In this document: positions 39,868-50,981 of the stretch, piece by piece | Layout: each line of letters begins with the position of its first letter | Position numbering within the stretch: position 1 is the stretch's first letter | Source of the DNA: a phage | NCBI GenBank assembly: GCA_025830695.1 | Contig: GCA_025830695.1_4111.2 | Length of the DNA stretch: 64,000 nt | Strand: one strand, 5' to 3' | The notes under the pieces: model-generated | Seen by the model: only the letters and a program-made list of their open reading frames with translations | The model's database searches: none | What the model was told of the DNA's origin: nothing | Program-made: the position numbers and the translations under genes

Positions 39868-39873
39868 TACATA

Positions 39874-39897
39874 GGGGATCGATTGATCCCCTTTATT
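39874..39897 (+). terminator. intrinsic terminator (GGGGATCGATTGATCCCC + TTTATT)
   Basis: Palindromic hairpin plus T-rich tail. Confidence 0.65.
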
Positions 39898-44143: not shown

Positions 44144-44153
44144 ATGAAAAAAG

Positions 44154-44177
44154 TGGTTGACTTCGGTCAGCCATTTT
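44154..44177 (+). terminator. intrinsic terminator TGGTTGACTTCGGTCAGCCA + TTTTG
   Basis: UUCG-tetraloop hairpin. Confidence 0.8.
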
Positions 44178-44203
44178 GCTATTATATATTCATTGAGAGA
44201 TAG

Positions 44204-45388: not shown

Positions 45389-45532
45389 ATGATCGCACTG
45401 GATTCATTCATCGACGCAGTACTGGCAAAAACTGGCGAGGATCTGACCGCAGAACAATACGCAATGATCGAACAATGCCAGCAAGACGGTAAATCGGTGA
45501 AAGATACTGTTAAGATTATCCGCAAGATGTAA
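45389..45532 (+). CDS. hypothetical protein (47 aa)
   Basis: AAGAGAGA SD; followed by hairpin containing GCTGGTGG. Confidence 0.4.
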   Translation: MIALDSFIDAVLAKTGEDLTAEQYAMIEQCQQDGKSVKDTVKIIRKM

Positions 45533-45553
45533 GATTATAGCCCACTGGTTAAC

Positions 45554-45561
45554 GCTGGTGG
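45554..45561 (+). other. Chi-like octamer GCTGGTGG in terminator-like hairpin
   Basis: Exact octamer in AGCCCACTGG...GCTGGTGGGCT. Confidence 0.45.
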
Positions 45562-45637
45562 GCTTTAATTCATTACCCTATACAATGCCAGTACTAAACC
45601 GTTTATCTCGTTAGAATGCGTTACAGGACGTTTAACA

Positions 45638-45835
45638 ATGATTAGCATGAAATCAGTACAAAAACAAATAGAAACATTATCAAAAATTAAACGTAAACAG
45701 TACTCGTTAGAATATACAATCAATGGTAACTATCATCTAATGAAAGAGAATAATTTTATAGTCATTGATGAATCATTGCAAATCATTAGTATAGTACTGA
45801 AAGCATTAATCAATGACAGAAAAAAATTAAAATAA
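45638..45835 (+). CDS. hypothetical protein (65 aa)
   Basis: Complete ORF. Confidence 0.5.
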   Translation: MISMKSVQKQIETLSKIKRKQYSLEYTINGNYHLMKENNFIVIDESLQIISIVLKALINDRKKLK

Positions 45836-45839
45836 TCTA

Positions 45840-45868
45840 TTGACAATATCATCCAGTACTGGCATAAT
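45840..45868 (+). promoter_or_regulatory. promoter (TTGACA-17-CATAAT) with ~300-nt leader
   Basis: Leader holds CCCATAGGGTGC element and four GATC sites in 45928-45965. Confidence 0.5.
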
Positions 45869-46166
45869 ACTTACATCAAGACGAGAACGTCACTAACCCA
45901 TAGGGTGCACAAATGTAACTGTATAATATTGATCAAAAAATGATCTGATCAATACTTGATCAATTTGCGTAAAGTAGTATAATTCTATGCAGTTGGTTAG
46001 ACGAAAGGTTATGATTAGTAGTGCAAGTGTATAAAAATTTTCATGGTGTATCGTTTCGCACATATGGGGATGAATATGTGGTATCATGTGGATTGGAAAA
46101 AGTAAGAACAAGTAATATTATTGTCGCATTACAGTACTATAGTATTTTTATAATGAGGTTAAAATA

Positions 46167-46424
46167 ATGGCAGTAGGATACGCGAAAGACGGGGCCGAAC
46201 AAGACGAGATCAACGCAGTGATTCAGGCCGCCGTTAACCACGCTAGAAAGCAAATTAACGCACAAATAGAATCACTGATACATTGCCTCGACTGCGGCGA
46301 TATAATCCCTGAGAAACGACGCCAGGCCGTTAAGGGATGTAAGTACTGCATAACTTGCCAGGAGGATCATGATAGTACTTTTAAACGTCCCCCGCGTAAT
46401 TGTTGGCATAGATCTATGAGATAA
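46167..46424 (+). CDS. DksA/TraR-family C4 zinc-finger protein (85 aa)
   Basis: C-x2-C...C-x2-C spacing and CLDCGDIIPEKRRQA...CKYCITCQ match TraR/DksA zinc ribbon. Confidence 0.7.
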   Translation: MAVGYAKDGAEQDEINAVIQAAVNHARKQINAQIESLIHCLDCGDIIPEKRRQAVKGCKYCITCQEDHDSTFKRPPRNCWHRSMR

Positions 46425-46430
46425 AAAGTA

Positions 46431-46458
46431 TTGACAGTACTGAAAGATAGTGTATAAT
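46431..46458 (+). promoter_or_regulatory. promoter (TTGACA-16-TATAAT)
   Basis: Consensus hexamers upstream of 46488 gene. Confidence 0.6.
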
Positions 46459-46487
46459 GTTTTATATCTTAACTGAGGATAGAAATC

Positions 46488-46844
46488 ATGGGAATACAAC
46501 ATATCACGCGTACTACTGACAATGGCGAGATCACTGGTTATCAAGTACAGGGCAAAGTAGCACAATTGCAGTACTGGTTTGTTAAACGTGGAATCATTGC
46601 ACCGGATCTTGATTATGACCGTGTAGCGTTTATTGATTCTCTTTATGTTGATCCTGATAGTCGGGGCAATGGTGAAGGTAACGAATTAATGAATGCCTTT
46701 ATTGATGCCGCCGATGATTCAGATTGTATCATTTTAGAATGCGATACAGGAGAAGATAACGCCTTCAATCTTAAAGAATGGTACGAAGGTTTCGGATTCG
46801 AGGTACTGATCGATAGTGAATATCCTATCATGATTTTATCATAG
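46488..46844 (+). CDS. GNAT-like N-acetyltransferase (118 aa), tentative
   Basis: LYVDPDSRGNGEGNELM resembles GNAT motif A; C-terminal WYEGFGFE. Confidence 0.5.
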   Translation: MGIQHITRTTDNGEITGYQVQGKVAQLQYWFVKRGIIAPDLDYDRVAFIDSLYVDPDSRGNGEGNELMNAFIDAADDSDCIILECDTGEDNAFNLKEWYEGFGFEVLIDSEYPIMILS

Positions 46845-47835: not shown

Positions 47836-47849
47836 AAATATTTGAAAAA

Positions 47850-47875
47850 GGGATTGACTCCGGTCAGTCCCTTTG
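47850..47875 (+). terminator. intrinsic terminator variant GGGATTGACTCCGGTCAGTCCC + TTTG
   Basis: 8-bp stem; TTGACT in stem ~17 nt upstream of TATTAT. Confidence 0.7.
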
Positions 47876-47933
47876 CTATTATATACGCATAGAAACAAAT
47901 CAGCCCACAGGGTGCATAAATGTATCTATTGTT

Positions 47934-48150: not shown

Positions 48151-48426
48151 ATGCGGATTCTACTGACAGCTAACGAAATCGAACAAGTACTGACTACTAA
48201 CCTGGAAGACTGGAAACGTGAAGCAGATATCCAGGCGGTTCAACTGCTTAACGATAAGTTAACGCCGGATGACTTAAGCAAGATTGTAGATCCTCAATTC
48301 TACGAAGATATTCACGACACCGCGTTAAGCGTCGAGGATGTACTTGATAAGCACTACATTGATATTGATTTGCAGGTTTACGGTCGTAAAAACTTTATCA
48401 CTATTCACGACATTTATAATAATTAA
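48151..48426 (+). CDS. hypothetical protein (91 aa)
   Basis: AAGGAAA SD. Confidence 0.6.
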   Translation: MRILLTANEIEQVLTTNLEDWKREADIQAVQLLNDKLTPDDLSKIVDPQFYEDIHDTALSVEDVLDKHYIDIDLQVYGRKNFITIHDIYNN

Positions 48427-48429
48427 GTA

Positions 48430-48487
48430 TTGACAAAGTATCTTAGTACTGTATAATAGTTTACATCAAGGGGGGAATGGTTCCCCT
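48430..48487 (+). promoter_or_regulatory. PeSL-like cassette (TTGACA-16-TATAAT)
   Basis: Hairpin GGGGGAA-TGG-TTCCCC. Confidence 0.65.
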
Positions 48488-48509
48488 CCTAACAAAGAGA
48501 GAAATAAAA

Positions 48510-48833
48510 ATGGCTATGATCCTTACCCAGAAAGTAGAACTGAAAATTGTAACCTCCTTTGACATTAAAGTTAATCGGTGGACTGATTCACACGGCAATA
48601 CTTACCACTCTTGCTACGTGTCTGCATTGATTGGTGATCGTTGGGAAGACCTGGGACATGAAACCTTTACATACGGTTACGGTACGCAAGGCGAATACAC
48701 TGGTTTGGAGATCATTAAAGAAACCGTTATAGGTTTCAACCCGAAAGAAAAAGTTATTCACCGCATCGAAAAAGAGATTAACAAAGAAATAACAGTTCGC
48801 TACTACGATGTAAAACGTAAGAAAGACATGTAA
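48510..48833 (+). CDS. hypothetical protein (107 aa), paralog of 42366
   Basis: Shared NRWTDSHGNTYHSCYVS and TFTYGYG. Confidence 0.6.
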   Translation: MAMILTQKVELKIVTSFDIKVNRWTDSHGNTYHSCYVSALIGDRWEDLGHETFTYGYGTQGEYTGLEIIKETVIGFNPKEKVIHRIEKEINKEITVRYYDVKRKKDM

Positions 48834-50868: not shown

Positions 50869-50981
50869 TGCTAATATATATTCATTGAGAGATAACTCAC
50901 TGACCCACAGGGTGCATAAGTGTATCTATTATATAAGTATTCAGTACTGAAAACTATTTTAAAGTATTTGATAAAAAGTAC

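Follow-up and report, generated by a model that had tools for sequence, protein, structure and literature searches.

A phased array of GATCAA sites in a dispensable cassette of Asteriusvirus jumbo phages as a putative promoter operator

The window analyzed here, a 64,000-nucleotide stretch of phage DNA, belongs to a member of the genus Asteriusvirus, the PBECO4/121Q group of jumbo coliphages. The 1-kb query 45500-46500 matched 37 phage records, all of them Asteriusvirus jumbo phages of coli/Salmonella (including PBECO4, 121Q, SP27, and slurp01), and identity was at least 99% in 6 of the 37. In records with annotated physical ends, the locus lies about midway along a long direct terminal repeat of ~21 kb; the repeat is annotated as 1-21,525 in the vB_Ec-M-J record, where the locus falls at ~12.0-12.3 kb, and the physical genome ends are ~11-12 kb away. 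In fEgEco12, a repeat of 20,993 bp was confirmed by restriction digests (PMC13070987). The surrounding region is a run of very small plus-strand genes, each with a near-consensus sigma70 promoter. For genome-wide comparisons we used the complete genome of a relative, TH47 (MT446416.1; 352,450 bp). The EC.P1 record (L006, PQ657772.1), deposited as circular, begins precisely at the TATAAT that precedes the first GATC unit of the locus; this is probably an arbitrary assembly break, though it coincides with the array. The features of the locus are as follows.

45827-45836, plus strand: left copy of the 10-bp direct repeat TTAAAATAAT, forming the 3' end of an upstream 65-aa gene
45840-45868, plus strand: P1, a strong sigma70-type promoter (TTGACA-17-CATAAT, 11/12 consensus, with TG upstream of the -10)
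45870-45918, plus strand: promoter-proximal repeated element, ~99% identical between clades
45922-45927, plus strand: -10-like TATAAT without a matching -35, conserved in the alignment
45930-45963, no strand assigned: GATCAA array of four 7-bp units (sites 45931, 45942, and 45958 invariant in the alignment)
45930-45936: array unit TGATCAA
45941-45947: array unit TGATCTG
45946-45952: array unit TGATCAA
45957-45963: array unit TGATCAA
45956-45983, plus strand: P3, a putative internal sigma70-type promoter (TTGATC-16-TATAAT, 10/12 consensus)
46021-46167, plus strand: orf48, encoding a 48-aa basic protein, with a GTG start and a stop that overlaps the next start (TAATG)
46159-46168, plus strand: right copy of TTAAAATAAT, at the end of orf48
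46167-46424, plus strand: TraR/DksA-type C4 zinc-finger gene (85 aa), translationally coupled to orf48

The initial annotation had placed the GATC sites in a single ~300-nt leader running from 45840 to the TraR-like gene. That description does not hold, as the interval also contains a putative second promoter and the conserved gene phrog_38664, of 48 aa. The direct repeat TTAAAATAAT bounds a 332-bp accessory cassette (45837-46168), and in ph0011, of the phAPEC6 clade, precisely these positions are missing and one TTAAAATAAT copy is retained. From this exact absence it follows that P1, the repeated element, the GATC array, P3, and orf48 are one unit of 332 bp, with the array and orf48 gained or lost jointly; on these genome comparisons, the unit is a dispensable accessory one. 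Several viable Asteriusviruses of like terminal-repeat architecture lack the cassette, including phage Sharanji (~20.7-kb repeat; PMC11895373), and because the phAPEC6 clade is without it, its members serve as natural knock-outs. The TraR-like gene is found in all clades, whether the cassette is present or absent, and matches PF01258 (41.3 bits against a cutoff of 24.9; E = 1.5e-10) and phrog_54 (E = 1e-18).

In the alignment, P1 is nearly invariant between the two clades. P3 was called from consensus and conservation: its -35 (TTGATC, 45956) is the fourth GATC unit, and its -10 (TATAAT, 45978) is invariant in all eight aligned sequences and lies 37 nt upstream of the orf48 start, a spacing similar to that in neighboring gene units, in a region so AT-rich that matches of this grade are common (30 found versus 17 expected). 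An antisense promoter candidate (TTGATC-18-TATTAT, 45952-45923, minus strand) was discarded, as it uses the window-specific GATC site and is not conserved in 121Q. A mini-ORF starting at the ATG of AATGATC was likewise rejected; it has no ribosome-binding site, and its product is not conserved (MI* in the window, 19 aa in 121Q, and 11 aa in Erwinia phage Hallingskeid). ARAGORN found no tRNA in the supposed leader (45840-46167), and no Rfam family matched it at the gathering threshold or at E values up to 1.

The GATC cluster itself proved to be as the initial annotation reported, with four sites in 31 bp starting at 45931, 45942, 45947, and 45958 (45928-45965 reads ATTGATCAAAAAATGATCTGATCAATACTTGATCAATT). 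Its wording "TGATCA repeats" is accurate for three of the sites (TGATCA at 45930, 45946, and 45957), and the remaining one, 45942, is TGATCT; the longer sequence TTGATCAA occurs at 45929 and again at 45956. The four sites form two pairs with 11-bp spacing (45931/45942 and 45947/45958), the second offset by 16 bp from the first. GATC is indeed sparse elsewhere: the window holds 125 sites versus 167.8 ± 12 in dinucleotide-preserving shuffles (at least 125 in 100 of 100 shuffles), or 0.58 of the Markov expectation, and TH47 holds 581 versus 1132-1243 expected (0.47-0.51). GATC avoidance is a known phenomenon in phages of Dam+ hosts (PMC5014478). When 125 sites were placed at random in 64 kb, four fell within 31 bp in only 58 of 20,000 placements (P about 0.003). 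Among the remaining 4-base palindromes, just ATAT and TATA attain four copies in 31 bp, and both are over five times as common as GATC. A density map of TH47 bore out the earlier observation: over the 352 kb scanned, the homologous locus is the sole place with at least three GATC sites in 40 bp or at least four in 80 bp, and its five sites in 70 bp were equaled in 59 of 20,000 random placements. Given this sole cluster in TH47 and the P value in the window, GATC density at the locus clearly differs from the genome average.

We then compared the array across lineages. The 121Q clade is ~79% identical over the cassette and keeps three of the four sites (45931, 45942, and 45958 are invariant); it lacks site 45947 and has two additional GATCAA units just downstream of the P3 -10, so that the -35 consists of one unit and two others fall near +4 and +15. 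Erwinia phage Hallingskeid carries two GATC pairs, each with 11-bp spacing (TTGATCAAGAAATGATC and TTGATCAATAATTGATC), upstream of an orf48 homologue that is 36% identical as a protein; the two sites of the second pair stand on either side of the -10 in a TTGACT-17-AATAAT promoter, 27 nt ahead of the homologue. In each of these three lineages, therefore, at least one GATC unit sits on a core element (-35, -10, or +1) of a putative P3-type promoter. The first pair, GATCAAnAAATGATC, is retained in all three, and pair plus spacer are identical at 19 of 20 positions between the Escherichia and Erwinia phages; with the repeated element included, identity is 87%, next to proteins that are only 36% identical. 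Throughout the alignment the GATC cores are invariant and the spacers drift, and the number of sites stays at four to five per lineage despite site turnover.

What is conserved extends beyond GATC. Seven of the eight nonhomologous sites are GATCAA, versus 10.7% of GATC sites elsewhere in the window (P = 1.2e-6); lineage-specific new sites appear as TGATCAA and not as bare GATC, and all units of the GATCAA arrays share one orientation, that of transcription. TH47 has six GATC pairs 11 bp apart genome-wide, versus about one expected, and two of the six are at this locus. The only other GATCAA pair with this spacing in TH47 (GGATCAATTTTTGATCAATAA, 26415-26432) is intergenic, ~45 nt upstream of a minus-strand open reading frame, and may be a second target of the same putative binder. 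Two exact-pattern scans of IMG/VR for distant homologous loci returned only 121Q, one other copy of the repeated element, and chance matches. The 17-mer at window positions 45929-45945 also lies within a 20-bp unit, TTGATCAAAAAATGATCAGA, that is repeated four to five times in tandem in two high-GC IMG/VR contigs (L053, 2815-2910; L102, 1372-1450), giving 10 and 8 GATC sites, respectively, within about 100 bp; since L053 was found by searching with that 17-mer, the 17-mer identity was selected for. The TTGATCAAAAAATGATCAGA array ends in a promoter-like TTGATC-17-TATAAT, and a large-terminase gene ~1 kb downstream contains an intein; the array may serve packaging or regulation in a phage that is unrelated.

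The repeated element next to P1 is one copy of a module that consists of a strong sigma70 promoter followed, 22-24 nt after the -10, by nnCTA(A/G)CCCAnnGGGTGC and then A..(G/A)TGTATCTAT. At this locus the core, CACTAACCCATAGGGTGC, spans 45891-45908, a small hairpin is possible at 45880-45891, and TTACAT/ATGTAA could form a closing stem. A motif scan of the window found 8 copies of the core versus 0.2 expected, and a looser pattern found 10, at the following positions.

36185, 36401, 38336, and 39949, minus strand: repeated module
38256, 44206, 45891, 47898, 50898, and 53160, plus strand: repeated module

Within the window the copies occur, on both strands, only between 36 and 53 kb, in the terminal-repeat early region. 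The module is also present at 88.9-104.9 kb in TH47 and in records L009 (~1199), L010 (~1257), L011 (~1054 and 1134), and L029 (six copies), and among the jumbo phages examined it is conserved in those of Escherichia, Klebsiella, and Erwinia. Its CCC-N3-GGG hairpin is invariant, and outer stems vary from copy to copy and are usually possible. A covariation test of the module recovered only the invariant CCC/GGG hairpin, the outer stems being out of register across copies, and the module had no Rfam match. It could be a short structured RNA or leader family (nut/put-like) or a DNA site for a factor that acts on these promoters, and such pervasive elements may merit more attention than the GATC array. 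AT-rich sequences resembling the TATAAT at 45922 come after other copies as well, and the position of the GATC pair at 45930 is often occupied there by an AGTACT palindrome. AGTACT is hugely overrepresented (275 in the window versus about 22 expected from base composition; 917 versus 119 in TH47), is found in promoter spacers (CCAGTACTGG) and in intergenic TTCAGTACTGAA palindromes, and contains GTAC, which occurs at 1.4 to 1.5 times the Markov expectation in the window and TH47. GCGC is absent (0 versus about 52 expected in 64 kb; 0 versus about 172 in the 352 kb of TH47), a pattern that points to complete avoidance of a restriction activity specific for GCGC or to another strong constraint. 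Terminator-like hairpins (AAAGGGATTGACTCCGGTCAGTCCCTTT) at 44150-44185 and at 47847-47882, with similar sequences near 50880 and 53140, carry a TTGACT -35 in the loop and stem, with a TATTAT -10 after it, so that a terminator and the next promoter are fused. After another module copy, at ~39870-39895 on the minus strand, a terminator-like hairpin is built on a GATC pair (GGGGATCAATCGATCCCC), and a similar one (GGGGATCGATTGATCCCC) follows the module copy of Klebsiella phage KP13-7 (L010, ~1305-1330); both may be evolutionary relatives of the AT-rich GATC pairs at 45930.

The gene downstream of the array, orf48, is a real gene: it corresponds to phrog_38664, is annotated as gene 293 in 121Q, and has homologues (36 to 45% identical) in Hallingskeid (Erwinia), CBB (Pectobacterium), GAP32 (Cronobacter), and Eneladusvirus phages. 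In CBB, GAP32, and Eneladusvirus, the homologues have plain promoters and no GATC array, so the gene can do without one. The orf48 product is basic, as are its homologues (pI 9.3 to 10.1). AlphaFold, working from an alignment of two sequences only, predicted four strands and a C-terminal helix (pLDDT 86), a fold closest to a DNA-bound AP2 domain; fragments of PH and WGR domains also match such small sheet-plus-helix units. A Foldseek search of the PDB with this model gave nothing significant. At the sequence level, none of six homologues had any Pfam hit at E values up to 10 (the AP2 family is PF00847), PDB profiles gave no match, and hhalign gave a probability of 0.4% against a sequence taken to be the AP2 domain of AtERF1.

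We favor the interpretation, at a probability of roughly 0.55, that the GATC cluster is a cis-regulatory protein-binding array, that is, a phased GATCAA operator over P3 in a dispensable early-region cassette. Because the conserved unit is GATCAA and not bare GATC, the putative binder is most likely a sequence-specific protein, and because every unit contains a Dam site, methylation could modulate its binding. Such a protein would bind the repeats cooperatively at sites one helical turn apart, cover the -35 or the -10/+1 of P3, and also obstruct readthrough from the strong upstream P1. P3 would serve both orf48 and the coupled TraR/DksA-like gene, whose expression would be repressed or timed as a result. 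A scan of the array gave no consensus match for IHF, FNR, CRP, DnaA boxes, or oriC 13-mers. Foremost among the candidates is the basic 48-aa protein that the cassette itself encodes, which would regulate its own expression, with adenine methylation, by host Dam or by a phage enzyme of the PF05869 family, as a possible modulator of binding, as at the pac site of phage P1. Since sequence-level support for an AP2 domain is absent and homologues elsewhere have no array, we regard autoregulation by orf48 as a lead and not as a result. A version in which an AP2/integrase-arm-like 48-aa protein reads GATCAA, N6-adenine methylation switches its binding, and TraR-like expression is thereby tied to the injected or replicated state of the DNA strikes us as distinctly unlikely; if true, a jumbo phage would have in its early region an epigenetic timer coupled to replication, and a minimal AP2-type regulator would be known together with its operator from a bacterial virus.

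The initial annotation had pointed to Dam methylation or SeqA, and much of what we found agrees with that proposal: the cluster is unique in a GATC-depleted genome (that of TH47), its cores are invariant while the spacers drift, the 121Q clade keeps three of the four sites and the Erwinia phage has the same layout, the paired sites in all three lineages lie 11 bp apart on the same helical face, and one GATC falls within the P3 -35 hexamer. In a pure form of this model, the sites would be read solely through their methylation state and would make P3 a replication-coupled switch: fully methylated, injected DNA would let P3 fire, and after replication either host SeqA would bind the hemimethylated pairs or methylation of the -35 would alter RNA polymerase binding. 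The hosts are Dam+ and SeqA+ enterobacteria. GATC avoidance of the kind recorded for phages of Dam+ hosts (PMC5014478) fits as well, as does the requirement of SeqA for phased GATC pairs (PMC5145175). Relatives also encode their own Dam-family methyltransferase; that of TH47 (48196-48720, minus strand) is a 174-aa PF05869 N6-adenine methyltransferase with an NPPY motif (E = 3.5e-33), and adenine methyltransferases of the same kind appear in the published annotations of Sharanji (PMC11895373) and phAPEC6 (PMC7247149). The TH47 enzyme also bears on the cause of the twofold genome-wide GATC depletion. A tblastn search of the window and TH47 with E. coli Dam and SeqA found nothing. The PF05869 family includes nonspecific adenine methylases, however, which weakens this part of the case. 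The conserved unit is an asymmetric hexamer in a single orientation, which neither Dam nor SeqA requires, and the sites that have arisen in single lineages have the longer form. Related phages of other Dam+ hosts (CBB, GAP32, and Serratia BF) do without the array, and the spacing preferred by SeqA in vitro is two to three helical turns, not one (PMC5145175). The proposal thus stands as far as the uniqueness, conservation, pairing, and promoter overlap of the sites are concerned, and falls short on the asymmetric, longer unit, on the context, which had been misread, and on the dispensability of the cassette as a whole. We consider the pure Dam/SeqA model a serious rival, if an unlikely one; the conservation of the asymmetric flank favors a sequence-specific binder.

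As GATC is palindromic, hairpin potential and helical phasing would suit SeqA and a role at the RNA level equally. In the latter case, GAUCAA repeats in P1 transcripts (and in P3 transcripts too in the 121Q and Hallingskeid lineages) would act as hairpins or as sites for an RNA-binding protein, controlling readthrough, stability, or translation of orf48. All units do share the orientation of transcription, each 11-bp pair can form a hairpin of 5 to 7 bp, RNA folding of the window array gave -9.4 kcal/mol (z = -3.0), folding of the array DNA gave z values from -1.3 to -4.0, and the last hairpin in 121Q abuts an AAAGG ribosome-binding site. However, the stems are weak and AT-rich, and their potential follows automatically from a repeated palindromic core. 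Relative to the -10, the second hairpin is upstream in the window and downstream in 121Q; its position differs among the three lineages, and they conserve no common RNA structure; nor is there a terminating U-tract after the hairpins or an Rfam match even at E values up to 1. We therefore find an RNA element improbable. That the array simply has no function, and arose incidentally when a short AT-rich motif in an accessory cassette was duplicated locally or slipped, would be in keeping with the dispensability of the cassette and with the window-specific site, which a 5-bp duplication (TGATC|TGATC) can explain. It is very improbable, given that Escherichia and Erwinia phages are nearly identical in the first pair with its spacer beside strongly diverged proteins, that four to five sites per lineage have been maintained through turnover, and that the background is strongly depleted of GATC. 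The precedent for a pac-like packaging site is the pac site of phage P1, with seven TGATCA/G hexamers at which Dam methylation controls cleavage (PMC10028697); GATC-rich oriC would be the model for a replication origin, and the TTGATCAAAAAATGATCAGA array of the unrelated contig L053 lies ~1 kb upstream of a large-terminase gene. Here, though, the cassette is missing from viable relatives, the phAPEC6 clade with Sharanji among them, which rules out an essential packaging site or origin, and the locus is ~12 kb inside the 21.5-kb terminal repeat and not at a physical end. The region has no perfect DnaA box, oriC-type 13-mer, or IHF site, and no 13-mer within two mismatches was found inside the array. 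GC skew was also tried as an indicator of an origin and set aside, as it follows the orientation of the genes and does not turn at the locus. A role in packaging or replication initiation is essentially excluded.

The control of early genes in the RaK2/Asteriusvirus jumbo phages is essentially unstudied, and this locus is a compact, easily testable module in which a unique array, a putative promoter, a 48-aa candidate regulator, and a TraR/DksA-type modulator of host RNA polymerase are found together. Should methylation gate the array, a phage transcriptional example would be added to the short list of Dam-dependent switches; should the 48-aa protein bind it, a PHROG family so far without a function would gain one. 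If neither holds, the array would be another small operator, which is the ordinary outcome.

Short phased repeats that overlap a promoter, possibly with sensitivity to methylation, are a known kind of element, and this array is an undescribed one in these phages. Operator families with beta-sheet binders include the met-boxes of MetJ, the half-sites of Arc and Mnt, the arm-type sites of lambda Int, and the bipartite site of the tandem-AP2 protein SIP2 of Plasmodium. Such tandem-repeat operators have units of 6 to 8 bp spaced by about one helical turn, overlap a promoter, and are read by a very small regulator encoded next to them; the array resembles them in its short units about one turn apart over a promoter, with orf48 adjoining. 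Unlike the regulators of these families, orf48 has no sequence similarity to any of them, and its homologues in other genera are without repeats. The pac site of phage P1 is similar in that several TGATCA-type hexamers are packed into a short stretch of a coliphage genome, and it sets a precedent for a sequence-specific phage protein that reads a motif longer than GATC and is still gated by Dam methylation (PMC10028697). That site lies inside pacA, marks the start of packaging, and consists of seven hexamers, arranged as two groups that span about 161 bp. In the window, by contrast, four units within 34 bp make up one group, which overlies a putative promoter midway along a 21-kb terminal repeat and belongs to a cassette that some viable relatives lack. 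The Dam/SeqA-controlled GATC clusters of E. coli, namely, those in oriC/dnaA promoter sequestration, at the IS10 transposase promoter, and at agn43 and pap, share with the array GATC sites over promoter elements, pairs on one face of the helix, and a Dam+/SeqA+ host. What counts in the E. coli clusters is the GATC core, to which agn43 and pap add a separate regulator site; the array described here differs in its conserved 3' AA flank and in the directionality of its units.
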